Position numbers and translations under genes: made by a program. Below are positions 1,982 through 28,755 of a stretch of DNA of 32,000 nucleotides, piece after piece (position 1 is the first letter of the stretch; each line of letters opens with the position of its first letter). The notes under the pieces were generated by a model that saw only the letters and a program-made list of their open reading frames with translations, was not told the origin of the DNA and ran no database searches. The stretch is from Candidatus Saccharimonadota bacterium. GTDB lineage: Bacteria; Patescibacteriota; Gracilibacteria; Absconditabacterales; Absconditicoccaceae. The stretch is taken from positions 270,001 through 302,000 of the forward strand of contig JAUIDC010000001.1 of the NCBI GenBank assembly GCA_030429145.1, read 5' to 3'.

Positions 1982-3250
1982 ATGTTGATCCCTAGACCAA
2001 GATATGTATCTCAGCTCAGAAGCGCCATAGACAATCCTTCTATCAAGTGTATTGTGCTCGATGGCCCAAGACAAGCCGGAAAGACGACGCTCCTTAAACA
2101 CATCTACGATGACGACTCTGTGGAGATGAAAAAATATTATTATAGCTTTGATGATCAACTCAGCACAAAGCAGTTTAAAGACAGCCAAGAGTTTATCTCT
2201 TTTATGCAGATAAAATTTGGGATCGATTTTTCGAAACAGAATATCTTGTTTCTCAATGAGATTCAATACAGCAAAAATATCGGAACGATCATCCACGATC
2301 TCATCAATGAACATCAAATCAATACGAAAATTGTGGCCACATGAATCACGCAAGGAGAGTACAAGGATTTTCTGAAGTTGGATGCTGCAGACTTTACGGT
2401 CATCACTATCCATACGCTTAGTCTTGTTGAGTTTCTCGAATACAAGTGAATACATACAAAACATCTTGATCCGCTCAAACTCAGTAGTATCCTTTTCTCC
2501 GAGATAGAACCGCTCCTCAAAGAGTTTATCACGCGATGAGCATATCCGAGTGTCGTGGTTGCAAAAACTGCTGATGAAAAGAAAGAAGCACTCAAGCATC
2601 TCATGCAGTCGATCATCATGAAAGATGTGAGCTTCTGGTTCCGTAGAGAGGAGATCGCTTATTTCGAACAGATTTTAGCAATTATCAATGACCAACACTC
2701 ACGCATCCACAACAAGCGAGCGATCAAAAACACCTATGAGTTCCCTGCCAAACTGATAGACAAATATACACAATTTCTTGAAGATCACTTTCTCATCACA
2801 ACACTTTCGCATTTCTACACCGACAAAACAAGAGAGGTTTCACACAAAAAAAATTCTTATCTTCTCGACATGGGCATCAAAAATTATCTCAACAATACAT
2901 TCTCACCGCTCCTCCACGATCCTTTTATCATGCGTGATATCGCACTACAAGAGATCTACAAAAGCATTCCTGCAGATCACCACATAGCAGCCTATCAGAA
3001 AATCAATGGATCGAAAATTGATTATGTCGTCTGTAGCGATAAGCATATCATCCCTGTAGTAGTAGGAGATAAAAATACAGAAAGCATACCCAAGGTTTTT
3101 GCAGGATTTTCTGAACACTATGGAGAAAAAATTGAAACACTCATAAAGACTACCGCCTCTTTTAGTAGCATGAACTATCTAGGCGAAAAACCAGTATATG
3201 TGATCCCCTACTTTCTCATAGGAAAATATCTCGCTGAAAATGCAAAATAA
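1982..3250 (+). CDS. AAA+ ATPase, COG1373 / AAA_14 + DUF4143 family (422 aa)
   Basis: Track ORFs 1982..2344 and 2555..3250 share a frame and join through TGA at 2342, 2447 and 2537 with no TAA/TAG between. Walker A is LDGPRQAGKTTLL. TGA positions give KIVAT[G]ITQ, LEYK[G]IH and ITR[G]AYPSVV, matching the TGS and GGYP motifs I recall for this family. The overlapping 277-aa minus ORF is antisense noise. Confidence 0.85.
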
Positions 3251-5985: not shown

Positions 5986-6017
5986 TCCCTGCAGTTTTTC
6001 TGCGGGGATTTTATTTT
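5986..6017 (+). terminator. Rho-independent terminator after the lipoprotein gene
   Basis: tccctgcag-ttttt-ctgcgggga forms a 9-bp stem with one G.U pair, followed by ttttatttt. Its T-run overlaps the TAA of the convergent DUF2779 gene. Confidence 0.5.
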
Positions 6018-7555
6018 GCTATCTCCTCTAACACCTTCTGATAAATACATACCATCGCCCGCGTATCTTGTTTACAGTACTCTAACAAGTTCTGGATATG
6101 TTTATTGCAAATGTCTGTTTCAAATTTTCACTGGACGATGCCGGCGAGCAGCTCTGCTGCGATAGCGCCGTGAGGCACGGCCATGCCGTCGTAGGAGATA
6201 TCTGTGAGCACTGGTAGCACTTTCTTGATAGACGATGAACCGTTGAAGTGACGATGAAAATATAATTGTTCACTGAAGATTTCCATGAGGTCGAAAGTGT
6301 TTTCATTTATCTTTGCAAAGACCTCTGCGTATTGTGGATATCTTTGTGCCATCTCATCATTTCTGGTATTTTCAAATCATTTGAACCACACTACATAGGT
6401 TCCAGCTCCCTCATCAAGATCATCTATGAGCTGTTTCACGATCGTTTCATTGGTATCAGCACCTGCACCGATGATGGCTTCTTTATGTGAGATCGTTCCA
6501 TCCTCGTCCATACGATGTACAGAATATTGGACGACCACCTGTTGCCATGGGCTTGTTCACTGCATGAGTGGCACAGGTCGACTAATGGTCTCATAGTCAT
6601 AGAAGTACATAGGAAAATGAATGTTATCAAACTTTTGTTTGATCCCGTCTGCATCTATGACCTTCTCTCATTGCTGCCAGAGTGAAACATAGTTACTCGA
6701 TTTGTTTTCTTCTCATTTCGCATTACGAAGCATTGCCCTTTCATCCTCCGTAAAATGGTCGATCAAAATTTTTCCTATCTCATAAAACTCTTTCGTCTTG
6801 TTTCTAATCTGTGGAATATTCCAGATGGTTCCCTTCTCCGGCTCTGTACCAAAATAGGTCAAGTGATCACTGCCGTCATACGGATAAACCTTGCAGAACT
6901 CCTCTCTCTCCAATGGAATATTTTCTGTCATAGAACCGATAATATTGAGCACAGCCTCATCACTTTTTAGTTCGTTCGTCACCTCTTCGCGCTGTAACAG
7001 TGCCTCAGGATCTATGTCTCATTCTCTCACATACTCTTTATTGAGATGTACCATAAATGCTCTACCCGAATATTTATCTTTCAATGCTTTCTTCAAAACA
7101 AAATGCTGAAAACTAACATCTGCCTCCATATCATCGAGCAGATTGTTTGCCTTCGTCTTTTTTCTCACACCATTTTTTGCTTTCACCTCTCGGAGGTCAT
7201 ACTTCCCTTCACTATTTCTGACGAGCAAGTCACACTTACAAAACAGATTATCATGGACAATTCCTGCCTGATAGACCACGTCAGGATTGGTCTTAAACGC
7301 GTCCAATGTATTGAGATGATATCACTGATATCGATCGGGATGCTTACGTTGCATAGACTCTACATTGACGATATTTTGTCACTGGAAAAGAGCTAATGCC
7401 CGCTCCTCCACAGCATTACCAATAGCCAACCCATCCATATCTCCATACATCTTGTCCAAAATTTTTGCATACACACCATTTTTATCGTGCACATGCCATC
7501 GAGCAAGATGTGGATTTGTTGTATATTCTACGAAAAGTGATTTTGTTAAGCGCAT
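6011..7555 (-). CDS. DUF2779 domain protein (PD-(D/E)XK-like N-domain; 514 aa)
   Basis: Track ORFs 7019..7306, 6713..6982 and 6128..6352, plus untracked pieces, form one frame from ATG 7555..7553 to TAA 6013..6011. Eight in-frame TGA (tca on + strand) at 7379, 7322, 7019, 6713, 6668, 6557, 6377 and 6128. DUF2779-like motifs: HFPMYFYDYETISRPVPLMQ[G]TSPWQQVVVQYSVH, GSSSIKKVLPVL, LLEYCKQDTRAMV. Confidence 0.85.
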
Positions 7556-13334: not shown

Positions 13335-14315
13335 ATGCCACTTATCGGAAAAAAGAAAGTAACAGATGGTATTAAGCTATCTGACAACCTCAATGTATTT
13401 GCTGATCTATATGTAAAGCAAAAACAAGCGATCCGATTTCCTGAGGAAATCAATATCGGACTCGACCTTGTTGACTATAAAGGGATGGCTGATGAAGAAA
13501 GAAAACTCTTTCACGACCTCGTAGGATACTTCGTTACATCAGAACTTCTTGTACAAAATGTACTTGGTGAATCATTCTATCCGTACATTATGGATCCAAG
13601 AGCGAAGATGGCGATGACCGTACAAATGTTTATGGAAGACATCCACTCTGACTTCTTCGAGATGATTCTCAATACGTTCAGTATGAACCGCGATGAGATG
13701 TACAACAAATCATCTACACATCCTATCATGAAGAAAAAACAGGAGATGGTAGCTGAAGCAGCAAATGCTATTAGTGTTTCTACCGGTGGCGTAGACCCTG
13801 ATACTATCAAAGGGAAAAAAGCGATCCTCAATGCTATTCTTATAAACAATATTATTCAAGAAGGTATTTTCTTTTACTCTGCATTTGCAATGTACTTTGC
13901 TATCAGAGAGACAGGAAGAATGAAAAATGTATGTAATGGTATGGACCTCGTTCTCATCGACGAAAGTTTCCACCTTAAGATGGGAATGGAGATGATCCTT
14001 ACTATGATCGAAGAGACTCCTGAACTTGTGCAGGATGAAGAGTTTGTACAGCATATCAGAGATACCATCGTTGCAGGAGCGGAACTTGAACTTGAGTTCC
14101 TCCAAAGTCTTCTTGGGTCACGCATGACATTTGGCATCAACTACAACGAAATGGCTGACTACCTCAAGTACGTTGTGGACAGAAGACTCGAAGAGCTTGG
14201 ATTTGGTCCTCACTATCTCGTAGGAGAAAATCCTCTCAAATTCCTTCAAAAACAAGACTTCAAAACTCTTCAAAATTTCTTCGAAATTACCCCAAACCAA
14301 TATACTAATTTCTAA
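13335..14315 (+). CDS. nrdB: ribonucleotide reductase class I beta subunit, class Ic-like (R2c-type; 326 aa)
   Basis: Track ORF. Ferritin-like metal ligands: TSE(70)LLV, ME(101)DIH(104)SDFF, QE(176)GIFFYSAF, IDE(210)SFH(213). Phe108 sits at His+4 where canonical R2 carries the radical Tyr. C-terminal NFFE..QYTNF tail. No TGA, TAA stop. Confidence 0.93.
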   Translation: MPLIGKKKVTDGIKLSDNLNVFADLYVKQKQAIRFPEEINIGLDLVDYKGMADEERKLFHDLVGYFVTSELLVQNVLGESFYPYIMDPRAKMAMTVQMFMEDIHSDFFEMILNTFSMNRDEMYNKSSTHPIMKKKQEMVAEAANAISVSTGGVDPDTIKGKKAILNAILINNIIQEGIFFYSAFAMYFAIRETGRMKNVCNGMDLVLIDESFHLKMGMEMILTMIEETPELVQDEEFVQHIRDTIVAGAELELEFLQSLLGSRMTFGINYNEMADYLKYVVDRRLEELGFGPHYLVGENPLKFLQKQDFKTLQNFFEITPNQYTNF

Positions 14316-14381
14316 CAAAAAACTGCAGTCCGTCACACACAAACCATCGTGTGCTTTTAATTTTGTGAATGTATAGTATCC

Positions 14382-16967
14382 ATGGCAAAAGTAGTTATCC
14401 ACCGTAATGGTCAAACAGAGCCCTTCAAGACAGAGAAGGTTATTGACGCAATTAAAGACGTACTCGTTGATATTAAATTGGACGATCCGTTTGTTGCAAT
14501 GTTTAAGATTATCAAAAATTTTGAAACAAAACTTCCCGATGAGGTGAAAACAGAAGAGATTGATAGTCTTATCCTCAAAGCAATTGAACCGCTTATCCCT
14601 GAAGATACTATCTACGATCAGATAGCGACTAGGCAGTTGGTAAAACTGATCTCTGAGGATATCAACAAGAAGTTTTCAAGCTTCAGCGAGTATATCAACT
14701 ACGGAGTGGAGAACAATATTCTCGACAAGAGAATGAAAGAGTTTGACCTTGGGACTATTGAACTCAACATCAATTACGACAACGACAAATATCTCAACTA
14801 TTTTGGTACTGCTACCCTACAGCACAGATATCTTGTGAAAGATAAAGACAAAACCATCCTCGAAAAACCACAATGGATGTGGATGCGTATAGCTATGGGC
14901 TTGAGTCTGTTGGAGCCGAACAAAGAAGACTTCGCTATCAAAGTATACAACAGACTTGCTACACTCAAATATCTTCATTCAACACCAACGCTCTTCAATT
15001 CGGGTACTAACTACCCGCAGCTTATCAGCTGTTTCATTGGTGTTGTAGGAGACAGCCTCGACAGCATCATGGAAAAGGCCACAGAAACATCAAACTACGT
15101 GAAATTTGCTGGAGGAACTGGAATGTCTGTTACAAAACTCAGAGCATCAGGTTCAAACATCTCCTCTATCAACTCTTCTTCATGTGGACCTATTCCATTT
15201 ATCAAGATCTTTGACACTGTCGTCTCATCTGTAGCCATCGGTGGAAAAAGAGCATCAAACATGGTAGTCTATATTGAGCCTTGGCACTACAATATTGAAG
15301 AGTACTTAGATCTCAAAGAGACAAATGGTAATGAAGCACTCAGAGCAAGAAAGCTCAACACTGCGCTTTGGATACCTGATGAGTTCATGGAAAGAGTACT
15401 CAGAAATGAAGACTGGTATATGTTCGATCCGAAAGAGTGTCCTGAACTTACAGAGACATGGGGACCAGAATTTTCAAAGCACTACAAGAGATATGCTGAG
15501 ATGGCAGAGAAAGGAGAACTCAAGCTTTGGAAGAAGATGAAAGCACAAGAACTCTACAGAGAGATGCTCATCCGTGCAGCGAAAAATGGAAACTACTGGT
15601 TCAACTTCAAAGACAGACACAACGAGAAGAGCCAGGCACCAAGCTACGCGCCTATTCACTCGACCAACATGTGTACAGAGATCAGTATTCCAAATCGTGA
15701 AGACAGTACAGCAACATGTACGCTTGCATCACTCAACCTGAGTAGATTCATCATGAAAGATAAACTGGAAAACGTTGACGATATGACACTCGAACAGAAA
15801 CTCGAATGCATCAACTGGAAGGATCTTGTCGACACAGCGAAGATTGCTATCCAAGCTCTCGACAATGTGATAGAACTCAACCACTACGTCGCAGATACAG
15901 CAAAGAAAAGTTCATTTGATCTCAGACCTTTAGGGCTTGGTGTGATGGGTCTAGGAGAACTCCTCCTCTATCTGAACATCCCTTATGAGCATACAGATGC
16001 ACTGACTCTTTCTGAAAAACTAGCTGAGACTATCTACAACGCAGCACTGGAAAAATCAGAAGAGCTCGCTGCTGAAAGAGGAACATTCCAAGACTATGAC
16101 GCAGAAAGATACTCATATAAGCCAAGAAGAAACATCCTTCTTCTCGCTATCGCACCTACTGCGAGTATTTCAAATATTGCAGGAACATCGAGTGGTATCG
16201 AAACATTCTTCTCAAATGTCTACGCGAGAGAGACTATCTCAGGAAAGTTTACTATCGTCGTACAACATCTGATAGAAAAATTGAAACAGAAGGGAATGTG
16301 GAATGATGAAATAAGACAAAAGATTATGAATGCTCAAGGATCTGTGCAGCATATCAACGACCTCGAAGATGTCTTTGACAGACAGGTCTTTAAGACAGTG
16401 TATGAGTGTTCACCAGCTTCACAGGTAGATGTTGCTGCTGTATGGCAGAAGTATGTTGATCAGGCTATTTCAAGAAATCTCTACGTGAAAGAAAATGAGA
16501 GAAATAATCTCTTTGATATCTACATGTACGCATGGAAGCAGTGATTGAAGTCTACATACTACTGTTTCATCGAGAAAAACATCCAAGGTGAGAAATACAC
16601 AGAAAGCGTTAACAAGCGTGGTGTACGTTCAGGATTTGGATCAGTCGGTATGAGAATGGACGCTGCGAAACAAAGTGACGAAAGCAACGCAGAAACTGCT
16701 ACTGCAAAAAGAGGCTTTAGCGCTACTATGGCAGCAGTATGAGCAGATAGCTCAGTTGCTGACGCTAACAGCAACACAAGCAACAATGCGAACCTAGAAA
16801 ATATAGACTTTAAAAATGTGACTGATGAACAGAAAGCGGCAATTGAAAATAAAATCAGAAATGAGAAAGGAGACGAATATCTAGAGAAACTCAAAGCAGG
16901 CACACTTTATGAAGACTCTTGTCCTGTTGACCCATTTGAAAAGGTCATGTGTACAGGATGTCAGTAA
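14382..16967 (+). CDS. nrdA: ribonucleotide reductase class I alpha subunit (861 aa)
   Basis: Track ORF 14382..16544 continues in frame through TGA at 16542 (YAWKQ[G]LKSTYY, a conserved GLK.YY motif) and 16740, ending at TAA 16965..16967. N-terminal ATP-cone (VIHRNGQTEPFKTEKV), LISCFIG, active-site STNMCTEISIP, C-terminal redox pair CTGCQ. Confidence 0.95.
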
Positions 16968-17023
16968 TAAGGCAACCCCACTGCTATCAGCCCCACCTTT
17001 ATGACACCAACGCACTGATATAA

Positions 17024-17053
17024 GAAAAGCCTGCCACGTTGGCAGGCTTTTTA
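17024..17053. terminator. bidirectional Rho-independent terminator between nrdA and the giant surface-protein gene
   Basis: aagaaa-AGCCTGCCA-cgt-TGGCAGGCT-ttttat: perfect 9-bp stem with 3-nt loop, flanked by an A-rich and a T-rich run. Lies between the convergent stops at 16967 (+) and 17071 (-). Confidence 0.7.
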
Positions 17054-17070
17054 TAATAGATGAATGATAA

Positions 17071-20000
17071 CTACTGTTTAAAGATATTGAGGGTAAGAGA
17101 GATATCTTCAGCTCCTGGAGGGAGATTGGTAAAGATTTCAGGATTTGCTTTGATAACGAGTGCACCGTCATCAAGAAGTCCGTCACCAGCTCTCTTATCA
17201 AACCAACTCTCTACGATAGATCTTCTTCCTTCTACGAGCTCCTTTAGATTGCCACCAAGGATAACTCCGTGGATAAGGAGTCTACCTCCATTGATCCAAG
17301 GCTTGTTGAGGTCGTTGTTGAAAGCTGCTTGATATCCATCACCTTCTGCTTTCACATTTTGCAGACCAATAAAGATACCTTTCACTGTCTGATTTTGGTT
17401 ATTCTCCTGGGCATTACCGATAGCTGAAAAGGTAAGATCTCCATCTCTGACGATAAACATTCCGTTAGGATTTTTCGTAAGATCACCCTTTACGGTAAGG
17501 TTACCATTGATAACGATCAGTGTAAACGCTCCTTTAGAGAATGTTGCATTTTCAAGGACTGTGATAGTTCCTCTCTTGCCATCTGGTGTCTTTGCATCTA
17601 TTACAAAGATGTTCTTTCCTGGCACTTTCGAAACACCTGCCTTAGTTACTGTGGTATTATTATCTAGTTTATCATCAATTGTATCCACCTTCACTGCAAG
17701 CGTTACATACTTGTTAACCATCTGCGCAATAAGGTTTGTATCTGCGTTACTAAGAGCAAACGAATCAAGCACCTTGATAAGCTCATTTACCTGAAGTACT
17801 TTCGTATTATCTTGTCTCTTATAGTCATCAAGATCTTTTGTCGAAGATGATGTACCTGTAGGAGTTCTTGAAACAGCATACTGCTTTGTTACACCAAAGT
17901 TCATCTGACATATTCTGTCACCAAGTGTAAGAGCGTTGCCGTTACAGAGTCTACCATTGATCACTCTCATCTCAAGTCTGTACTCTCCAAGTCCAAGATA
18001 GTAAGATCCAGTAATCTGTACTGCTCCAAGTCCTCCTGGGTTTGGTAGATCGTACTTGATCTTTGCTGATGAGAAGGCTGTATTGATAAGCGGAAGATTT
18101 GGATTGCTATAACATTTCTGCACCCATGTCTTGCTTGCTCCATTTGGACCATTGAGCGAGAATTCACAATCAAGCGAATCGATATTGATTCTTACGTCGC
18201 CAGTATTGCTTGTACATGCAGATGTCGCTTGTCCGTAACCAGCACCACCTGGGCGGTAGTAACCGTACTCCATATCCCATCGGTATGGCATATATTCACC
18301 AACATTGATAGAAGGCGGATCGATATACGAACATTGTACACCTACTGTAATACCCGAAGGTCTGTCTCCAAACGTACAGTCAGGGCGACATACCTTTCCT
18401 GCAGGAACACCTGCTGGTTTGATACCGAGCAATGGATTTCCTGGATCACACTGTTCACCTCTATCTGGCTGAAAGATACCATCACCACAATATGGACGAT
18501 GTCCTCCCCCACCAGGTCTGATGGCAACTGGTTTTTCACATGCAGGATTTGGTCTTCTTGCTACGACACAAACCGCCTTTGTATTAGTAGGATTACTATA
18601 GGTACATGTTGCTTTAAATGGCGTACTGTTAATAGTTGTACCTGTAAATACCTGTCCATTACCACACTGCAATACTGCATCAACAGGATAAGCACCCCAT
18701 GTTGTTCTACACTCGTACTCAACACTTACTTGTGATGCACTCGTGATCAAATTAGTAACATCTGGATTGCCACTGAGACCCTGACATTCTGGACTTTGTC
18801 CTGGAGGGCCTGTATCTGGTCCAATAGTTACCTGGTCTTCATCGTCTTCTACTCTATGATTTCTTCCTCTATTACATGGATTACTATCTCTATCTTTCAC
18901 GCCTGTTCCAGAAACACCGTTATAGGTACACACCTCTGTGTAGTTTATCTCATTGACTGTACTCTTGTAGGTTGCTGTAAATGTGATAGTTATAGAATCG
19001 CCTGGTTTGAGTGCTGGTAGCCCACTGAAAATAATTTCTTTCGTTCCACTAAGCGTCGTCACAATACCACCAGGTCCTCCAGTTGTATTGACGTAGTCAA
19101 CTCCCGCAGGGAGATAGTCACGAACCGTATAGCCGGTTATTGGAGATGTAGCATCAGCTTCATTTGTCACTACGATAGTATAGGTTACTGTGTCACCGTA
19201 TTTTACAATGGTTTTATCAACTGTTTTCTTGATGTTTACGTCGAAGAATGGCGTACCACCAAAGCCAGTAGTCGTTGTTGTTGCTTCGCCACAGTTATTG
19301 TTGTTATAGTAGTTATCTCCTTCTATACATACCTTATTTACATAGATGTGGCCACTTGCTACTGGACCCAGCACCGTTGCCTTGATAGAAACAAGACCGC
19401 TGTATCCTGCTGGCATATTTGTAAAGCCTGTCCATGTCAGCTTTTGTCCTGCACTTGGTGTTCCTGTTACTGTTGGTTGCCCAATATTTACACCTGAGTG
19501 AATCACTACAGAATTTGGAAGATACTGCAGACCTGCAGGAAGGTTATCAAAGAGCGACCAATTTGGCGCTGTTAACGGTCCAAGATTTCCATATCTGATC
19601 GTATATGTCACTACATCACCTGATGCAACGACAGGCTTATCGATCACCTTATTAGACCAAAGATCATAACACAAGATCAGAAACGTTGCATCGTCCTCTG
19701 CTGGACCTGCATTGGTCGCATCTACCACACCCTTGTTGAGGATGGTATGATTCTGACAAAGTGGCACGTTATTATTGATCTTTACATAGATCTTGATGAG
19801 ACCTTGCTGATTTGGAGCGAGATTTCCTACATTCCATGTGAGCGTCTGACCATTGATACTCGATGGAGATGGAAGAGAGTTCGCAAAAGTCACATCTGAC
19901 GGCAATGTGTCCGTCACGAATGTACCTGTTGCAGTTCCACTTCCTGAGTTACCATAGGTGATAGTATAGACGGCATACCCATTTGGCATGTAACCACCTG

Positions 20001-21213
20001 TGCTTGCTACCACATCCTTCTGAAGCCAAAGCTGAGGGTTTTGTGGACACTGTATCGGAGAGGTTACCATAGCATCGTTATTGAAAGTGAACTGATATGG
20101 TTCGTTTGATGCTGCTATCTGTACCTGATTTTTCACTGTCGAACAATTTGGCACAGAGGTTTTAATCTGTGCATCAAATTTGATATACTGGATGCTGTTT
20201 GCTGGCATATTACCAAGATTCCATGTGATAGTCGTCGTACCATTTCCATTGAGGATAACTGATGATGGAGTTGGTGTTGATGACGATGGAATAAATGTCA
20301 GTCCTGTTCCAAGTGTATCAGTCACGACGACATTGTTCGCAAGTCCTGAACCTATGTTACGAGAAGTAAGCGTATAGGTCACATTTTGTCCTTGGATCTT
20401 TGAGCCAGTAACAGATTTTTGTACTGTTACATCCGGCGGCAATGGCACTGGCACATTTTGACATGTCGCTGAACACGAGTTTCCTTGTGTACCATTTGCT
20501 AGTCCATTGTCACACTGTTCACCGTATGCGGTTGCGAGGATACCATCACCACACCAGCGGATCTGATATCTCTGACACTCTACCACACCCTTATTGTCCG
20601 ATGTTGTTCCTTCATTGTTGTCTGAGTCGAAAAACGTGAGCATCCTTGTTTCAGCATCATAGTTGGAACCTAGAGCTGGGGTTGTCGGATGAGATCCAGG
20701 ATTTCTATAGTTTGGTTTGTAAAAACTGAAGTTACCGTAGCTATTGGAAACTGTTGACGTATACGGCGAATAGAACGACCAGTTAAAATTGAAATATGCA
20801 GGAGAACCAACCTCCTCTGCTGTCGTAAGATGTCTTACTGTTTGATATGGATTAATTTTCCAGTTATGTGAGGCCAACTTATTCCTGTTGAAAATAAGCA
20901 CTCCTGAGTCCTTTCCAGGATAGTTCGACGAATTGTATACAATATGATTACCATAGTTGAAGATTTTGTATCTCCATAGGTAAAGCGGCACATTTGAACT
21001 ATTGTAGAAATAGTCGAGCAATATACCGTAATTATTCACATATACTGTACTATAGTTCGTCTCGTCACATGACATTTGCTGTACGGTAGAACTACCGAGG
21101 CTACTCACTGAGCTAGCTGACCAGTTATTGAGTGCACTATTTGCAGCAAACGACTGTCCGGCAAAGAGAGCCGCAGTCGTTATCACCGAGAAAATAATCT
21201 GTTTCAATTTCAT
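17071..21213 (-). CDS. giant secreted surface protein with DUF11 repeats and Cys-rich CGDG..EQCD repeats (1380 aa)
   Basis: Track ORF 17071..21255. The likely start is the internal ATG 21213..21211, giving signal peptide MKLKQIIFSVITTAALFAGQSFA|AN. About five DUF11-type repeats (e.g. VTVQKSVTGSKIQGQNVTYTLTSRNIGSGLANNVVVTDTLGTGLTF). Two Myxococcus-type Cys-rich repeats (WCGDGILATAYGEQCDNG..CSATCQ and YCGDGIFQPDRGEQCDPGN). TAG stop. No TGA in the whole gene. Confidence 0.9.
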   Translation of the reverse strand: MKLKQIIFSVITTAALFAGQSFAANSALNNWSASSVSSLGSSTVQQMSCDETNYSTVYVNNYGILLDYFYNSSNVPLYLWRYKIFNYGNHIVYNSSNYPGKDSGVLIFNRNKLASHNWKINPYQTVRHLTTAEEVGSPAYFNFNWSFYSPYTSTVSNSYGNFSFYKPNYRNPGSHPTTPALGSNYDAETRMLTFFDSDNNEGTTSDNKGVVECQRYQIRWCGDGILATAYGEQCDNGLANGTQGNSCSATCQNVPVPLPPDVTVQKSVTGSKIQGQNVTYTLTSRNIGSGLANNVVVTDTLGTGLTFIPSSSTPTPSSVILNGNGTTTITWNLGNMPANSIQYIKFDAQIKTSVPNCSTVKNQVQIAASNEPYQFTFNNDAMVTSPIQCPQNPQLWLQKDVVASTGGYMPNGYAVYTITYGNSGSGTATGTFVTDTLPSDVTFANSLPSPSSINGQTLTWNVGNLAPNQQGLIKIYVKINNNVPLCQNHTILNKGVVDATNAGPAEDDATFLILCYDLWSNKVIDKPVVASGDVVTYTIRYGNLGPLTAPNWSLFDNLPAGLQYLPNSVVIHSGVNIGQPTVTGTPSAGQKLTWTGFTNMPAGYSGLVSIKATVLGPVASGHIYVNKVCIEGDNYYNNNNCGEATTTTTGFGGTPFFDVNIKKTVDKTIVKYGDTVTYTIVVTNEADATSPITGYTVRDYLPAGVDYVNTTGGPGGIVTTLSGTKEIIFSGLPALKPGDSITITFTATYKSTVNEINYTEVCTYNGVSGTGVKDRDSNPCNRGRNHRVEDDEDQVTIGPDTGPPGQSPECQGLSGNPDVTNLITSASQVSVEYECRTTWGAYPVDAVLQCGNGQVFTGTTINSTPFKATCTYSNPTNTKAVCVVARRPNPACEKPVAIRPGGGGHRPYCGDGIFQPDRGEQCDPGNPLLGIKPAGVPAGKVCRPDCTFGDRPSGITVGVQCSYIDPPSINVGEYMPYRWDMEYGYYRPGGAGYGQATSACTSNTGDVRINIDSLDCEFSLNGPNGASKTWVQKCYSNPNLPLINTAFSSAKIKYDLPNPGGLGAVQITGSYYLGLGEYRLEMRVINGRLCNGNALTLGDRICQMNFGVTKQYAVSRTPTGTSSSTKDLDDYKRQDNTKVLQVNELIKVLDSFALSNADTNLIAQMVNKYVTLAVKVDTIDDKLDNNTTVTKAGVSKVPGKNIFVIDAKTPDGKRGTITVLENATFSKGAFTLIVINGNLTVKGDLTKNPNGMFIVRDGDLTFSAIGNAQENNQNQTVKGIFIGLQNVKAEGDGYQAAFNNDLNKPWINGGRLLIHGVILGGNLKELVEGRRSIVESWFDKRAGDGLLDDGALVIKANPEIFTNLPPGAEDISLTLNIFKQ

Positions 21214-21242
21214 GTGTCCTACAATTACATAAATATAAATTC

Positions 21243-21434
21243 CTATCTTGCTCATTCAGAGTATGGGAGAAGAGCCCCTGAAACACCTGCTCCTGTCACA
21301 CTTATACTATCAGAACTTACAATGTTTTCCTTTTCACTTCACGTACTATACCCATTTTCACCATATTTGTCAATAGCATATAACAAAAGGGCAATTCCCA
21401 CCAATAATGCTATCACTACAAGTAACTTTTTCAT
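21243..21434 (-). CDS. possible small membrane protein (63 aa), visible only under code 25
   Basis: Own translation from ATG 21434..21432 to TAG 21245..21243: MKKLLVVIALLVGIALLLYAIDKYGENGYST[G]SEKENIVSSDSISVTGAGVSGALLPYSE[G]AR. It has an N-terminal TM helix and two in-frame TGA. It lies between the orphan gene stop (21459) and the giant gene start (21213). Support is position and hydrophobic N-terminus only. Confidence 0.4.
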
Positions 21435-21458
21435 CCTCTACCGTATTTATAGAATAAA

Positions 21459-24400
21459 TTATCTTCCACCTTCACCATTTCCATTGTCACCACCATCTCC
21501 AGTACCATTGGTACCACCGTCGATGACTACATCTCCTTCTTCTCCTCCAGTTTCAATAATTGTACCACCGTCTCCTTCTGGTTCCTCAGGTGGCTCAACT
21601 GGTGGCTGCGTTGGAGGCGTCGGCGCCTTTGGCTTTCTACCAACAAGCGCTCCAGCTCACACATTGATACTATTTGCCGTCTGGTAGTTTTCTGTGTATT
21701 CCATACCAACATAGATATCACCAGGCGTCTTTTCTACTGTCGTTGTCGTTTCAGAGTATTTCATACTAAGCTGACCAAAGCTGATCATGAATCCCTCGTT
21801 TGCACATGGCGCAAAGAGCATCTTCACAAACTCACTTGGAAGAGTCAATGTTACACCATCCGCCGTCTCCAATGTTTGATTTTTTACGAGATCCATAAGC
21901 TGATCTGTATTGAGTGGTTGTACATCAGCTTTTTTGTCTTTCATGAACTTATTTACCTTGTCGAGAAGAAGTGAGAACTCTCTCGTTGTCTTAAATGACT
22001 CCTGTAGCTTCGCTTTTGCATCCAGTTCAGTAGCAGCTTCTCTGTATTCCTGTCCCTTGATGATCTCAAGATCCCCAGAAATAAATCCTGTCGTAGGAGT
22101 AAGTCCTCTTCTATAGTACGACACGAGAGCAATAGCCTGTGGAACAGTCTCCGTCTCGTATTTTTCAGTCTTGCCATCGATTTTCTTTGCTTTTTCATAG
22201 AGACTCGCAAATGAATTTTCTGTAATAGCGATACCGCTATTTTTAAATGCATCCACGTGTCCTTGTCTCTTAGCAAGCATCTGACCAATGCTATTCACTC
22301 CTCCAATAGTTTTTCCTTCTGCAATCGCATTTACTTTTGCTGAAGTAGATCCTGTCTCTAAGAGCACATTAGTGATATATCTCTTGTTTTGCTCCTTTGC
22401 CCATAGTGTGTCAAAGTGAGCATCAAAAATCTTAAGGTACGTATTGAGTGTGTCTATCGTCTGTTTCAATCTTGCGTCATCAGTTCCTCTTGTTGCTTCT
22501 GCAAACTCTCCAAAAGCCTTGTTATATTTCTCCTTAGTCGCAACAGGCGTCTTGTTTGGATCAGTCATATTTATAAATATCTGCCTATTGTCTCTGATCA
22601 TTGAGTCAATCAGCGCGACGTCCTGTGCATCAAGCCCAATATCGACACTCATAAATTCTTGCTGAGACTTAAGAATATTCATAGGTCTCTCCACAAGATA
22701 TGGCACCTTACTTGGATCACCATTGAGAGGAGAGTTTATAGCTCTTTTCCCCTTGGTCATATCTTTTTCACTGTCATATCCTATATATATCTTCTGTTTT
22801 TCACCTTGCGCACCAATCAGCGTTCCCATAAGTATATTTGATCACTTAGAAATAGTGATAGCGTTGTCTGTGACCTTCACGAGCGACTTATCATTCACGA
22901 ACACATCAAACTGGTCATAGATAGGATTGGCTGCTCTTCCTTTCTGTCTGATCGTAATCAGCCCATCGATTTCAGCAACCTCTGCCTTGTCACCAAGCCA
23001 GTATGCAATCTTCTCTGCATATGACATATTTGCGACATCTGCATTATCAAATTTTTCAAATCCTGCAAATGATGAAAGACGCTGTTCTTTCGCCTGTTTA
23101 TCAAATTTATCTGTACGAATAGTTGCTTTCTTATAGATCTTCATACCAACAAATGCATTAATCACTGGGATGGTTGCGAGCGTACCAACTCCTGCATTCA
23201 CAGAAAAGTCTACTTTACCTCTCGACTCTCTCAGTGCTTCATTTTTCCATGCACTTGCAAAGGTCGAAGCAATATCCTCCCATGTAAATCATTGCTTCAT
23301 ACCATCAAGTATATGGCGAGCCATAGCAAGAAGCGATGCATCATCAGCTCTTGAGAATAACTGTTTTAATTGTGTAGCCACCTGCTCTGCAGTTGCTCCT
23401 GGTTTAATATTTTTTAGCTGTGCTTGTAGCTGTTTACTGATATTTTCTGACTGAGCATCAATACCAGCCGTCAAGTCATTTCCAAGCTCGATACCAACCC
23501 CTGCATATCCTACTGTTGCCTCAGCATATGCTCCAGTATTCCAAAGTCTCTTTGCCTCAAGGTTTTTCTTGAGTGCTCCCATGTTGAGAGACTGACTAAT
23601 ACCAACGCGCGCAAACGGAATAAGCACATTTGCTGCACCTGCATTTCCTGTAAGCGTTGTCGTATTTGAAAGCTGAAGATCCTTACCAAAGTTTACGGCA
23701 AAACCTGGCGCTCATTTATCAGATACTCATACACCTACGGTCATACGATCAATGAGTGGAGAGATATTGTTAATAGTCATCCCTGTACCAATACCAGCAC
23801 CTCTCATATCCACGTTATTGTTTGGATCCTGTACGTCCATCATCCCTGCTGCGATCGTCCATGTGATCTGCGAGCGAAGAGCTCTTTGTGCATCTTGTGT
23901 CTGCTGAGGATCTAGGCCAAGTGCTGCTATCGCATCAGCTGTTTTTTGATCTATCGCACTTGCATACTTCGCTTCGATCTGCTTCTGTCTATCTGCAACA
24001 TCAATAGCTGCATTCTTTGTCGTGAGAAAATCTCTCAGACTAACAACCGTCATATATGGCAATGCTTGCATGATAAGATTTCTAATATGTTGTGCCTGTC
24101 CTGGGTTCGAAAGAGCCTCATTGAGTCCTTGCATATTTTGCCAATTAAGCAATCCTGCGCTACCAGAAAGCGTTGCTAGCTTGTCATGAAGCGCTTTTGC
24201 AAAGGCATCCTGCCCCATCATTTTCGCAGTAGTCTGAAACATGGCAAGAAGCTCCTTTTCCGTAAAGATCGTCTCTTTTTCATTGTACTCGGTCTTATTC
24301 TGCGCTCTCTTATCAAGTCTATCCTGTTTCTTTTCCAGTCTGTTTATCTTCTTCGCATCATCCCAAAGATTATCTCTTTGCAAAGCTCACTTCATCTGTC

Positions 24401-24944
24401 TAGCCCAATTGAGCGCTTGTTTCTTCTCCTCTTTCGTCGGGTATTTACCAAACATCGTTTCTGCATAATAAGCAGCGAGGCCTCTCGTGAAATTTATACC
24501 CTGAAGTGCTCATTTATCGAGAAATCATAGAAGAAGATTTTTGTTCTGCGTACCGATATCTGGAATACGACTGATAGCATTCATCAAATCTTTTTGCTCT
24601 TGATCAGCAACATCTTGCTTATTACGAAGTTTCTCATAACGTTTATCGTTTTTCACTTCTGTCCCAACAAATCTATCGTTATTGAGATCGGCGATATATG
24701 CGGAAAGTTCTTGCTGAGTCTCTACAACAACGACCTTTTGCGCCTGCTTCTTTTGTTGCTCAACCTCGTTAATCTCGTTGTTCAGCGTCTCCTTTTGATC
24801 TGCCGGCAAGCGCACATCATCAAGCTGCTTATCAAGGTTCTTTCCTTGTGCTAGAATCTTATCAATCTGCTTCGAAGTATCCTCCATAGGGTTCTTCAAG
24901 AGATCTTGATTGTTCTGTGCCAAAGGCGAATTAAGTCCTCACAT
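21459..24944 (-). CDS. large orphan protein (1161 aa) with coiled-coil N-region and Gly/Asp/Glu/Pro-rich C-terminal tail
   Basis: Track ORFs 24525..24923, 23727..24383, 23289..23627, 22842..23201 and 21657..22829 all share one frame. I translated every gap and found only TGA, at 24939, 24525, 24510, 24387, 23727, 23712, 23289, 22842 and 21657. ATG 24944..24942 is preceded by an in-frame TAA. After the last TGA the frame runs 66 more codons (..RKPKAPTPPTQPPVEPPEEPEGDGG..GDGGDNGNGEGGR) to TAA 21461..21459. No N-terminal signal peptide and no domain I recognise. Confidence 0.75.
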
Positions 24945-25109
24945 GTCTATTCAAGATAAGAGTTATAAAATCTTACCTACTATTATAGAGAGCATTTTTT
25001 ATTTCGACAATCCTAGGACCCCTCCTCTCCAATACAAAGAGATTTCACAAACACAATAAAAAAATACATCACTATTTATAGTGACATATTTATAATTTAT
25101 TATATCTTA

Positions 25110-26546
25110 TTATTTCCCTCACAAGACTACTCTTACTGTCGAAATTAACACCTGTAGATCCATAGCAAGCGACCAATGCTGGATATAATAGAGCTCCAAC
25201 TGCGCCTCTTGTTCAAATGGCAAGTTGTCGCGTCAAAACACCTGTGCATATCCCGTCAAACCCGGCTTTGCAGCTAGGAGTCTTTTCATCCACGGCTCAT
25301 ACTTTTCAACCTCTGCGGGAAGATGTGGCCTTGGTCACACCATCGACATAGTGCCTAAAAACACATTGACCAATTGCGGAAGTTCATCGATAGATGTTTT
25401 ACGAAGTATTCTTCCTACGCGAGTCACGCGTGGGTCATCGGCAATCTTCGGTAAAATATCATCTCTTGAGTTTTTTGTCTGAATAAGCTTCTCGTACATC
25501 TTCTGCGCCTTTTTTCCCCCATAATTTTCACCAGTACTCATATGTGTATACATGCTGCGAAACTTCAGAAATCGGAACAGCTGTCCCTTTCTACCTACTC
25601 TCTTTTGCAGGTAAAAGACTGGTCACTTGGAGTCAATCTTGATAAGCATTGCTGTCAGAAGGAAGATTGGTGAAAGTACGATCAATGCGAGGAGAGAACA
25701 AACCAGATCGCATAGTCTCTTAAAGACCTTCATCCAACCATCTAAAGGCGAGCTACGATATGCTCGTCACACCACTGGCCCAACACGCTCAGGCATAGCA
25801 ATCAGATCCTCCAAGAAATAACTCTCTGGGATATGGTAAAATATCTTCCCATGACTACGTGCATGATCAGCAATCATCTGCAAAGTATTGGTACCATATG
25901 AACCAACCGCCATCGCAATATCTATCCCCTCTCGGCTACGTGTCGAGTCATACTCTTCATACGCTACTGGGATGATCTCATAGATAGGATAGCCTATCAC
26001 ATCTTCCGAGAACTTTGTATAGTGCTTCTGTGTTTTATAGATAACCAATATCCTATAAGGCTGTCTTCTTTCTAGTCGGCCATTGAGATTGTTCCAAAAA
26101 ATATCAAAAATACTCAACACAACCAAACCACATCCGGCTGACCAAAGGATCAAAAATCTTGATATACCATCACCAAAGAGAAATCCATTTCCAAAAAGAG
26201 CCAAAAAGGTCATCGTTACTAACCGCCAGACCCATGCAAGCAAGAACTTCTTATAGTAACCATGCAATGGCCTAAAGAGCTCATAGACCCCAAGAAAAAA
26301 AGCTGCTATAAGAAAAATAATGATAGCTGCTAGTGAAAACCACATAGTTTCTTGCGTGTTGAATGCTGGGATTCTCAGCTGCAACCATGGTATCAGATCA
26401 GTATACTGACGCACCGTATAACCGATATAAAATACTGCTACGAGCAGTATAAAATGAAATAAAGGCCTCGCAAGGCGAAGCAACGTCTTATAGATTGAGG
26501 CAGTACCCTTCTCCATGAAGATAGTAATGGTTAAATATACTTTCAT
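25110..26546 (-). CDS. polyprenyl-phosphate glycosyl-1-phosphate transferase (bacterial sugar transferase, WbaP-like; 478 aa)
   Basis: Track ORFs 25767..26546 and 25335..25553 share a frame and join through TGA at 25767, 25623, 25335, 25233 and 25119, ending at TAA 25112..25110. N-terminal multi-TM region, then [26 protein letters not shown][G][42 protein letters not shown][G][14 protein letters not shown][G][17 protein letters not shown]. Confidence 0.9.
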
Positions 26547-26972: not shown

Positions 26973-28055
26973 ATGAAGAAGTTTGGTATGGGTTTATTTT
27001 ATATAGTTGCTTTTTGCGGTATAAGCTACTTTCTTTGGGAGTATCTGAACGCTCCGAGAGAGTTTATCGTGAGCCTCATCATCAGCGTACTCATTATAGG
27101 CGTGCTCGCTTGGAAGAAAAGCCCCTATATGTTTGGCGTGTGAGTGATACTAGTTGTTGTGCACATCGTGCGACTTGTCGGTCATTTCATCCCAGTATAC
27201 AACGAAGAGCCTGACATTCGCCAACGATATCGCACCCATGACAGCATGCTTCGCTCAGTTGGCTGAGCAGCGGGAGATACACAGGTGACGTTAGTCAGTG
27301 CAAACACACAGACCGTGACTGACGCTGCTCAGCTCCGCTCCTCTCCGCTCCCTATCTATCAGTGAAACCAGATCATAACAGTGGGACCTGCTATAAGCTC
27401 AGAAGGGCGCGTCATGCTCACCTTCCGAGACGGTAGCAATGCGCAGCTCTTTCCTCAATCATCGCTACGCATAGACACTCTCGCACCAGACTATGCTACA
27501 CTGAGCTGATCGCGTCTAGGCCTGATTCTCGAAAGAGGGATCGTCGCGGTAGCAACGCCAAGGCGTTCGTTTACTCCTCAACAGTGGTTTGTAAAAGCAG
27601 GAGGGCTTTACCTCTCATGCAGAGAGTGTATTGTTGCTCTTTCGGGAAGTGCTGGTTCATTCTCGAGTGAAGAACCGTTTACTCGGCGAGTTGCATGAGG
27701 CGAGTTTATCACACTTTCTGGTGGAAGTTATCTTTTTACCAACAATGCGATACGCGCAAGCAACAACACTGCTCTCTCTGCCTTTTTCAATGATACGACA
27801 AATACAACGAGAAACCGAAAAAGCACATATGAGAGCGAACGTCAACAATATATCCGTGACAGACGGTGATGGTCGATGGATGCCAGCATACTGCTAACGA
27901 GTGTTAGTAAGATCAAAATGGCTCTTGTCTGACTTATCGACCGAACATATTTAGAAAAATATGACTATCTTGCGCTCTATGAGTACTTACTCGATGGTGG
28001 TGAAGTCCCTCCTCCATTTAGAGACCAGCAACATATCTTAGAGTATACACAATAA
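26973..28055 (+). CDS. membrane protein with FecR-like domain (360 aa), almost invisible in the standard-code track
   Basis: Only the first 65 aa appear in the track (26946..27143). Codon-by-codon translation continues in the same frame through TGA at 27141, 27264, 27363, 27507, 27696, 27867 and 27930 to TAA 28053..28055. About three N-terminal TM helices, then IYQ[G]NQIITVGPAISSEGRVMLTFRDGSNAQLFPQSSLRID, which is FecR-like. All 8 TAA/TAG triplets in 27230..27630 fall in the other two frames. Likely start ATG 26973 (MKKFGMGLFY). Confidence 0.7.
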
Positions 28056-28104: not shown

Positions 28105-28650
28105 TTAACGAAATGAGAACGACTCAAATGCCATGTCGATAGAGTCACGATTGCCACTGAAATTGCCAGCAGGAGCAAGATAGGTCATAACGTACACAGT
28201 ACCATTTCTCATCGTGTAGACCTGCTCCCATGAGAATATCTGGTCAAGATATTTTCCGCTAAATGAGACTCTTCTTGCCGGCGTTCCATCTACATTGAGC
28301 GATGTTGGCTGCACATAGGAAAACTCTCTGATCACCTCGCTTAACTGCGAAAGTGTTTGATTGACATAGACATCCAACCCCATATCTACTGGTATGTTTT
28401 CTCTCGTCACGTTGAATACTGGTGTATACTCTCCAATATCAGGTGAGGCTACTGTTGCAACCAAGTAAGGATTGGTAGCTCCTGTCACAATAGTTCGCTC
28501 ATTGGGATATGCAAATGAAATTGTATTTTCTGCATCCACGAAAACATTCTTATAAAAGAGTTTGTTTCCATAACGAAGCCATAGGATCAATGCTACGACA
28601 ATCAGTGCCGCAAGAGAAATCAGAAGCCATGAAAGCCATTTTTTCTTCAT
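28105..28650 (-). CDS. membrane-anchored hypothetical protein (181 aa)
   Basis: Track ORF. N-terminal anchor MKKKWLSWLLISLAALIVVALILWL followed by a beta-rich ectodomain. It may have a PsbP/DcrB-like fold, but that is a guess. TAA stop, no TGA. Confidence 0.6.
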   Translation of the reverse strand: MKKKWLSWLLISLAALIVVALILWLRYGNKLFYKNVFVDAENTISFAYPNERTIVTGATNPYLVATVASPDIGEYTPVFNVTRENIPVDMGLDVYVNQTLSQLSEVIREFSYVQPTSLNVDGTPARRVSFSGKYLDQIFSWEQVYTMRNGTVYVMTYLAPAGNFSGNRDSIDMAFESFSFR

Positions 28651-28755
28651 GTTTTGTTTCCCACAGAAAGGTAAATTACCTCACATATAATCAAACTTAT
28701 ACCAATAGCAAGGAAATTACTCATTATTTTCCTCTCTTTCCCGATATATGATATG

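Follow-up and report, generated by a model that had tools for sequence, protein, structure and literature searches.

A window of 32,000 nucleotides from contig JAUIDC010000001.1 was analysed, and the subject of this report is one gene on its minus strand, located at 24944..21459 in window coordinates. Translated with genetic code 25, in which TGA is read as glycine, this gene forms a single coding sequence of 1161 sense codons followed by a TAA stop, and its product is an acidic protein of 127 kDa. Under table 11 the same sequence appears as five short open reading frames (ORFs), which fuse into the 1161-aa protein once nine TGA codons are read as glycine. That it is one code-25 gene of a lineage-restricted protein family is very nearly certain; the fuller explanation, which adds a predicted architecture and an inferred role in the envelope or in host contact, is slightly favoured as a whole, and the envelope or host-contact, porin-like role taken by itself is tentative. 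The nine apparent stops are ordinary glycine codons of one intact, chromosomal protein gene. The original prediction, an earlier reading of the same DNA, had proposed one table-25 product of 1161 aa from five ORFs and nine TGA codons without giving a strand; the frame, the orthologues and the exchanges between TGA and GGN codons bear out the fusion, and the strand is found to be the minus strand.

The five table-11 ORFs, all on the minus strand, encode 132 aa (24525..24923), 218 aa (23727..24383), 112 aa (23289..23627), 119 aa (22842..23201) and 390 aa (21657..22829), and one frame is common to all of them. This frame contains a single TAA or TAG, its own stop, confirming that the gaps between the ORFs are free of these codons, while the remaining two frames contain 25 and 53. 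The longest run without TAA or TAG in 1000 shuffled versions of the region was 328 codons, compared with 1161 in the gene. Upstream of the ATG the frame is open for just six codons, so no hidden signal peptide precedes the chosen start. This start is further supported by a close orthologue in locus L036 (81% identity), which begins in the same manner with M-TGA-G-(I/L)-N-S-P-L-A-Q.

In-frame TGA codons, each read as glycine, occur at residues 2, 140, 145, 186, 406, 411, 552, 701 and 1096. The first (24939..24941) belongs to the M-TGA start kept in L036. Aligned with L036, codons 140 (24525..24527) and 186 (24387..24389) correspond to GGA, and codons 145 (24510..24512) and 701 (22842..22844) to GGG; the 'DKG' containing residue 145 is also kept in the homologues P0002 and P0003. 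Codons 406 (23727..23729), 411 (23712..23714; GGT in L036), 552 (23289..23291) and 1096 (21657..21659; GGA in L036) fall in columns that are invariant glycine in homologues free of TGA. Altogether six of the nine sites are GGA, GGG or GGT in L036 and three are TGA in both genes, and six TGA codons of L036's own are GGN in the window gene; at the 12 aligned glycine positions where such exchanges occur, TGA never alternates with TGG. After the last TGA 65 codons were counted, not the 66 given before.

The ratio of nonsynonymous to synonymous substitution rates (dN/dS) between the two genes lies at 0.05-0.06 for all four segments of the body, with dS saturated, and low values (~0.06) extend across the TGA junctions; in the C-terminal tail, which is less constrained, the ratio is 0.21. 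These data bear on the view that the locus is a decayed pseudogene, or five separate short genes whose common frame is a coincidence or an assembly error. Five ORFs are indeed what table 11 yields, and fragments of the gene are listed separately in public collections (P0015, P0020 and P0047), but the shuffled maximum of 328 codons, the low dN/dS in all segments and across the junctions, the uninterrupted orthologues and the alignment of TGA with GGN leave this view hardly any credibility. The existence of full-length orthologues shows that the common frame did not arise from sequencing errors, and conservation covers all of the fragments rather than one of them. Pseudogene, separate genes and sequencing error were excluded by these orthologues and by the L036 comparison.

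The decoding of TGA as glycine in the genome of the window is shown directly. In other window genes TGA occupies canonical glycine positions, namely the MutS motifs IPMA-G-VPYH and G-RHPV and the V-G-PRP motif of a sugar transferase. All 20 of the window genes checked for their terminator end in TAA or TAG and none in TGA, and long open frames in the window become about twice as long when TGA is counted as sense. TGA accounts for 56 of the 616 glycine codons across the window and for 9 of 94 in the gene under study, which is an ordinary share. No tRNA genes were found within the 32-kb window. The recoding itself is that of code 25, which is well known, and a public call of the fused ORF already exists, unnamed and mistranslated: P0054, an NCBI-sourced record from a 936,577-bp contig, is the same 1161-aa protein with W at all nine TGA sites. 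This record is what speaks for a reading of TGA as tryptophan (code 4), which is otherwise scarcely tenable, given that six of the nine sites are GGN and none TGG in L036, that four sites are invariant glycine in TGA-free homologues, and that the MutS and transferase motifs require glycine. The Trp-for-Gly substitutions in P0054 are of the kind produced by table 4, and other proteins of the same record may share the error.

The gene content of the window is cellular: it includes MutS, both ribonucleotide reductase subunits, adenylate kinase, ribosomal proteins S9 and L13, a pseudouridine synthase and a sugar transferase of the Bac_transf family. The window is cellular chromosomal DNA and not viral. 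The large subunit of the ribonucleotide reductase is 85% identical to that of OZ246420.1, a complete 1.1-Mb chromosome of a metagenome-assembled genome (MAG), and the next-best matches, with 60-77% identity, come from MAGs labelled Absconditabacterales or Gracilibacteria. The organism is a code-25 Patescibacterium of the Absconditabacterales type (SR1/Gracilibacteria class). Since the product is long, with a helical Lys/Glu/Gln-rich N-terminus and a Gly/Asp-rich tail, a structural protein of a phage or mobile element (tape-measure-like) or a calcium-binding exoprotein of the RTX type was considered. The former conflicts with the results of the PHROGs comparison and of a scan of 2.9 million viral contigs, neither of which revealed relatives of the family, with the lack of a significant match in BFVD, and with a chromosomal position between housekeeping genes that is fixed in eight genomes. 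As for the latter, a regular-expression search found no GGxGxDxUx repeat in the protein, even in relaxed form, in agreement with the original prediction that the tail is not RTX, and Pfam gave no match. Both origins are therefore very improbable.

A word-indexed protein search recovered three homologues, P0001-P0003, of 976-1208 aa and 34-45% identity, and its repetition with an alignment returned the same three proteins. Their genes are uninterrupted under table 11, whereas the genes beside them are fragmented. Internal TGA codons are absent from P0002 and P0003, and in P0001 and P0002 an apparent TGA stop reads through into a likewise Gly/Asp-rich acidic tail. Within genomic loci, orthologues were sought among six-frame ORFs with TGA as sense, matched with a hidden Markov model (HMM) of the family, and full-length copies were found in L001/L002 (1237 aa), L003 (1219 aa), L004 (1228 aa), L005 (1258 aa), L006 (1193 aa) and, via a scan with the neighbouring reductase, L007 (1354 aa). 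A HMMER profile of three orthologues, with P0002 as the query, was then searched against 1.84 billion representative proteins and returned 50 proteins (clusters at 50% identity), 41 of them at E <= 1e-10; all 50 are members or fragments of the same family, with no link to other families. The final family alignment was made with hmmalign.

Searches for relatives beyond the family gave no support for any. Comparison of the protein and its orthologues with Pfam, NCBIfam and PHROGs yielded noise only, a Pfam scan of all 50 members revealed no recurrent family, and searches of the PDB sequences, with single sequences and with profiles, produced no match; one profile, which had collapsed to 349 positions, returned noise only. 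A GTDB scan with family motifs was empty because the motifs were too specific; repeated with the neighbouring ribonucleotide reductase, it recovered the lineage and the one further orthologue, L007. In other Absconditabacterales loci the gene does not lie within 10 kb of the reductase, which does not imply its absence there. No paper naming the family was found in the literature. The claims that the protein has no nameable domain and that no characterised family, by sequence or by Foldseek, would match it have thus stood. The term 'orphan' holds in part: there is no characterised relative, but the family comprises 50 or more clusters at 50% identity. As judged from these searches the family is detectable only in the Absconditabacterales lineage, so it is restricted and not a strict orphan. 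It is under purifying selection, vertically inherited and fast-diverging.

The rate of divergence is evident when the protein is compared with its neighbours. Identity to the window sequence is 42% for the protein, 76% for the upstream transferase and 77% for the downstream giant gene product in L001; the corresponding values are 34, 76 and 64% in L003, and 33, 81 and 56% in L007. At depth, the protein is the fastest-diverging one of its block, a behaviour that would be typical of exposed or interacting proteins.

The architecture was predicted with AlphaFold2 (AF2) for the orthologue P0002, which is 37% identical to the window protein, and mapped onto the latter. With the alignment of 50 sequences, the model had a mean predicted local distance difference test score (pLDDT) of 79.1 and a predicted template modelling score (pTM) of 0.41, compared with a pLDDT of 39 from an alignment of three sequences; the beta blocks mostly have a pLDDT of 70-97. 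The following segments, all encoded on the minus strand, are approximate in their residue boundaries.

The N-terminal region (aa ~16-373; 23826..24899) is predicted to be all-helical, with many helices of 15-40 residues and a Lys/Gln/Glu-rich start, and carries the conserved motifs NRxEK..., GxDxFAxAL and LPYMTVxSLxxWL. A coiled-coil-like N-terminus of about 250 aa had been expected; its helical nature is borne out by the model, but it extends over about 375 aa and consists of separate helices in a bundle-like arrangement. A classical coiled-coil stalk was rejected because the model gives these many separate helices. Beta block I (aa ~385-490; 23475..23792) would comprise seven long, Gly-rich amphipathic strands and includes the invariant motifs IPFAR and G-PGF-xDF-K. 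It is followed by a four-helix insertion (aa ~491-572; 23229..23474) and by a long beta-hairpin (aa ~578-611; 23112..23213), the most hydrophobic stretch of the protein. The next segment is an inserted mixed region (aa ~654-1020; 21885..22985), in which a small beta-rich domain with the highest confidence of the model (pLDDT to 97), a helical region, short strands and three helices are predicted. Beta block II (aa ~1033-1100; 21645..21848), defined by the model and by conservation, has five strands and contains the sole cysteine, C1047, in an invariant PCxNE, as well as the invariant IYVGME and YQ motifs. The protein ends in a Pro-rich linker and an acidic Gly/Asp/Asn tail (aa 1101-1161; 21462..21644).

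In total, about 14 long strands are predicted in three blocks, split by insertions of 85 and ~440 aa. Their amphipathicity was also assessed independently of AF2, from family-averaged hydrophobicity: 9 of the 13 predicted long strands have a period-2 pattern (mu180 1.3-2.2), compared with 0.5 or less in helices. Glycine makes up 14% of strand residues against 7.6% overall and is unusually frequent on the polar face of the strands. Most of the conserved motifs are located within the strands or next to them (G-PGF-xDF-K, IPFAR, AW-N...KVD, YIGY, YYR, PCxNE, IYVGME and YQ). No transmembrane helix was found in the protein, the maximum 19-residue Kyte-Doolittle mean being 1.40, in the hairpin. There is also no signal peptide: the N-terminus is polar, as are those of the homologues, and with the low hydrophobicity maximum and the six open codons before the ATG the earlier statement on this point is upheld.

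C1047 of PCxNE and Q1088 of YQ are retained even in the most divergent members, P0019, P0037 and P0051, and this conservation makes it conceivable that they form a cross-link within the molecule or act in catalysis. The invariance of these two residues prompted consideration of a thioester-domain (TED) adhesin, which was rejected: no TED match was found in Pfam, and the context of the YQ glutamine does not fit the TED motif. Where a signal peptide would be expected, the N-termini of family members (residues 1-15 of the window protein, and P0002, P0007, P0012, P0003 and L001) carry a polar, weakly conserved motif, which is G-[IV]-G-L-[SR]-Y-E-N or, in another subgroup, GVRLEGK; such a motif could be a non-classical export tag.

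The gene is part of a broadly syntenic block that extends from S9 and adenylate kinase to ribonucleotide reductase. In all eight loci compared, including L005 with 31% identity, the order is Bac_transf, family gene, and a giant gene with DUF11/CLIPPER repeats; the comparison of synteny across relatives that had been proposed thus shows conserved gene order. The Bac_transf gene, a phosphoglycosyl or sugar transferase assigned by Pfam and synteny (25110..26546, minus strand), is always directly upstream. The giant (17071..21255, minus strand) encodes 1394 aa with four DUF11/CLIPPER stretches identified by Pfam and an N-terminal signal-like sequence, in keeping with the secreted adhesin-like neighbour described before. 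It is not directly adjacent, as had been stated: a 63-codon ORF with two TGA codons and an N-terminal hydrophobic helix, MKKLLVVIALLVGIALLLYAIDKYG... (21434..21243, minus strand), sits between the stop of the family gene and the likely start of the giant. The same position in L036, L004, L001 and L006 is occupied by ORFs of 57-61 codons, whose products likewise have a hydrophobic helix at the N-terminus, and the motif IDKYG-N-Y-T of the small ORF is common to the window, L036 and L004. Translation of the giant probably does not begin at its first ATG (21255); M15, MKLKQIIFSVITTAALFAGQSFA (~21213), matches the signal-like start MKITKIIFALAITVSIFVGQSFA of the L036 orthologue, and the signal-peptide-like start of the giant is thus probably located there.

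A promoter-like sequence, TTGTCG-17-TATAAT (25010..24982, minus strand), lies 38 nt upstream of the ATG of the family gene and is a consensus match only. The total count of promoter-like sites in the region equals the shuffle expectation. This sequence and a second one, likewise a mere consensus match (21373..21345), are the best two of the sigma-70-like sites within 10 kb, and each is located in one of the two intergenic zones; the second lies inside the 63-codon ORF. Just past the stop of the sugar transferase, an AT-rich hairpin, TCACTAT-AA-ATAGTGA, followed by a T-run can be read from the sequence (25054..25084, minus strand). It was not reported by a terminator scan that required GC-rich stems. 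The hairpin is a possible terminator that would make the family gene its own transcription unit.

The structural model suggests where the family might belong. No Foldseek match of the P0002 model in PDB or BFVD reached E <= 0.001, so the structural comparison that had been proposed gave no significant match and only a sub-threshold resemblance to barrels. The geometrically best of the sub-threshold matches are membrane beta-barrels: the designed TMB10 (8uzl), with a template modelling score (TM) of 0.55, a root-mean-square deviation (RMSD) of 3.5 A and a probability of 0.98, KdgM (TM 0.48-0.53, probability 0.89-0.93) and NanC (TM 0.46), with PcoB, OprB and FhaC as further weak matches. The top rows by E-value are of FMO type, with RMSD of 21-25 A and probability <=0.25. 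ClyA-type alpha pore-forming toxins were rejected, the match to MakB (6t8d) having a probability of 0.07, TM 0.13 and RMSD 24.9 A. The KdgM alignment (243 columns, 171-residue target) would fit block I together with the helical insertion and the hairpin. The model is consistent with a meander of about 14 strands in which the two large insertions would project to the side opposite the N-terminal domain and the tail, which would be the arrangement of outer-membrane proteins.

The likeness to KdgM and NanC (4pr7, 4fqe, 2wjr) and to TMB10 (TM normalised to the target 0.46-0.55, RMSD 3.5-5.2 A, probability 0.84-0.98) includes long antiparallel meander strands, a dyad hydrophobic pattern and many glycines. 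KdgM and NanC are small 12-stranded outer-membrane porins; the E-values of these matches, TMB10 included, are 0.8-1.6 and not significant, and there is no sequence similarity. The protein also lacks a signal peptide and a C-terminal beta-signal with an aromatic last residue; what follows its last strand is a Pro-rich, acidic stretch of 61 aa with ...GEGGR at its end. Its strands also occur in three blocks, separated by the 85-aa and ~440-aa insertions and preceded by a helical region of 375 aa, and its phylum, unlike the hosts of these porins, is regarded as lacking an outer membrane (PMC12102498).

Two other groups of proteins are similar in layout. Deinococcus SlpA, OmpM of Negativicutes and BcsC/PgaA combine an N-terminal helical, coiled-coil or TPR part with a C-terminal barrel, so that what is shared is the layout only, a large helical region followed by a barrel-like part; a sugar-transferase gene is adjacent both to exopolysaccharide exporters of this kind and to the family gene. 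Unlike these proteins, the one described here has no SLH, TPR or barrel profile match and no signal peptide, and the match of one family member to SlpA_C in the Pfam scan (E = 0.11) is at noise level. In two-partner secretion (TPS) a TpsB barrel such as FhaC is encoded beside its TpsA partner, and here too a predicted barrel-like protein adjoins a giant repeat adhesin. FhaC (4qky) is a weak Foldseek match with a probability of 0.63, whose TM normalised to the target is just 0.18. POTRA and ShlB/Omp85 were not matched by the protein or by any of the 50 family members in Pfam or NCBIfam; the giant neighbour, unlike TpsA, has its own Sec-type signal and DUF11 repeats and no TPS domain, and the organism, unlike those with two-partner secretion, is presumed to be monoderm.

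On these grounds the protein may be a component of the cell envelope or of the host contact. In this view its strands would build either a barrel resembling a porin or a large curved sheet; the N-terminal domain and the tail would face one side and the inserted domains the other, and the protein might act jointly with two products encoded just downstream, the small membrane peptide and the giant DUF11 adhesin. The biology of the lineage provides a context for this proposal. Those Absconditabacteria that are in culture live as epibionts that prey on Gram-negative bacteria, and their surface proteomes are elaborate; genomes of the Vampirococcus lugosii type are rich in giant envelope proteins, including DUF11 adhesins thought to serve in prey attachment (PMC8080830). 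These giants belong to the same lineage and code as the family, and the 1394-aa neighbour in the window is of that type. Unlike those giants, which are predicted to be membrane-bound or secreted and have recognisable adhesion domains, the family protein has no recognisable domain or export signal.

Several points weigh against an envelope role. No structural match is significant, the pTM is only 0.41, closure of the barrel is hypothetical, and the protein modelled is a 37%-identical orthologue rather than that of the window. The protein has no signal peptide, C-terminal beta-signal or transmembrane helix. With the phylum regarded as lacking an outer membrane, a classical porin would have no obvious membrane to reside in and no known export route. 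Since gene order is conserved over the whole 30-kb block, the position beside the giant says little by itself about a functional link. As far as the model goes, amphipathic strands would also fit a soluble alpha/beta protein.

The last point leads to the main alternative, about as tentative as the envelope role: a soluble cytoplasmic protein, for example a scaffold, or a 'taco'-type sheet that binds a lipid or ligand and packs against helices. The amphipathic strands would then be one layer of an alpha/beta fold, and the adjacency to the adhesin would simply be inherited order. It accords with the lack of a signal peptide, transmembrane helix or known export motif, with the synteny of the entire neighbourhood among relatives, with the presumed absence of an outer membrane in Patescibacteria and with the FMO-type proteins that head the Foldseek rows by E-value, which are open beta-sheets wrapping a core. 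However, these FMO alignments have an RMSD of 21-25 A and a probability of <=0.25, against 3.5-5 A and 0.9-0.98 for the barrels. The unusually Gly-rich polar face of the strands also speaks against it, and the Pro-rich linker, the acidic low-complexity tail and the fast divergence would be more characteristic of a protein that is exposed.

An exported pore-former or anchor is unlikely. In this alternative the barrel would be inserted into the outer membrane of the prey or host at the contact site, with the DUF11 giant providing adhesion. The porin-like set of predicted strands, even in number (~14), with its opposite-side topology, the rapid divergence of the protein and the epibiotic predation of Gram-negative bacteria by cultured relatives would all agree with it. 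Opposed to these are the lack of an identified export route and of any similarity to pore-forming toxin families (MakB, probability 0.07; none in Pfam and NCBIfam), and the fact that the structural support is wholly predictive. The most far-reaching form of the envelope or host-contact proposal is quite improbable. It pictures a porin-like protein of about 14 strands with domains on both faces, which would be exported without a Sec signal by an unrecognised route and would reside in the outer membrane of the prey or in an unrecognised outer layer, forming with the small peptide and the DUF11 giant a conduit or anchor between epibiont and host.

Further observations concern the surrounding genes. 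The DUF11 giant (17071-21255) contains no TGA among its 140 glycine codons, compared with a window average of 9%; a probability of ~2e-6 for this absence follows from the window codon counts. The L036 orthologue of the giant (13795-17946) has 18 TGA codons. TGA is likewise avoided in the genes of the ribosomal proteins, of adenylate kinase and of the small subunit of the reductase. Selection acting on highly expressed genes could account for this avoidance, as could a recent replacement. Two other window genes are split under table 11, a DUF2779 protein with eight TGA codons (6011-7555, minus strand) and an AAA_14/DUF4143 ATPase with three (1982-3250, plus strand). Next to the sugar transferase, and syntenic in relatives, are genes for a 360-aa membrane protein (26973-28055, plus strand), in which seven TGA codons make up 24% of the glycine codons, and for a DcrB-family protein with an N-terminal anchor (28105-28686, minus strand). 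The membrane protein diverges quickly, with ~50% identity where its neighbours have 76%. In L005 a gene at 20315-21814 with a match to Por_Secre_tail, a C-terminal sorting domain of the type IX secretion system, lies downstream of the DUF11 giant, which is unexpected outside Bacteroidota-type secretion. In L008, whose reductase is 77% identical, a 2828-aa giant beside the reductase (13576-22059, minus strand) matches the DUF11 giant with 30% identity, and the size of the surface-protein locus differs strongly between genomes.

What remains of interest here is a family that is uncharacterised and without a structural match, and for which a specific structural prediction can be made; its member in the window is a well-supported hypothetical protein, and not a demonstrated new system. 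The case has a practical side for annotation: table 11 shreds the gene into five, one public record carries nine wrong tryptophans, and analyses of families and structures in these lineages have to use table 25. For the biology of the group, it adds a conserved, fast-evolving 127-kDa protein without known relatives, fixed beside a giant adhesin in a lineage whose representatives in culture live as obligate epibiotic predators. If its strands do form a membrane barrel, the family would bear on how Patescibacteria without an outer membrane build or breach envelopes at host contact, and on beta-barrel membrane proteins outside the biogenesis pathways of diderms.

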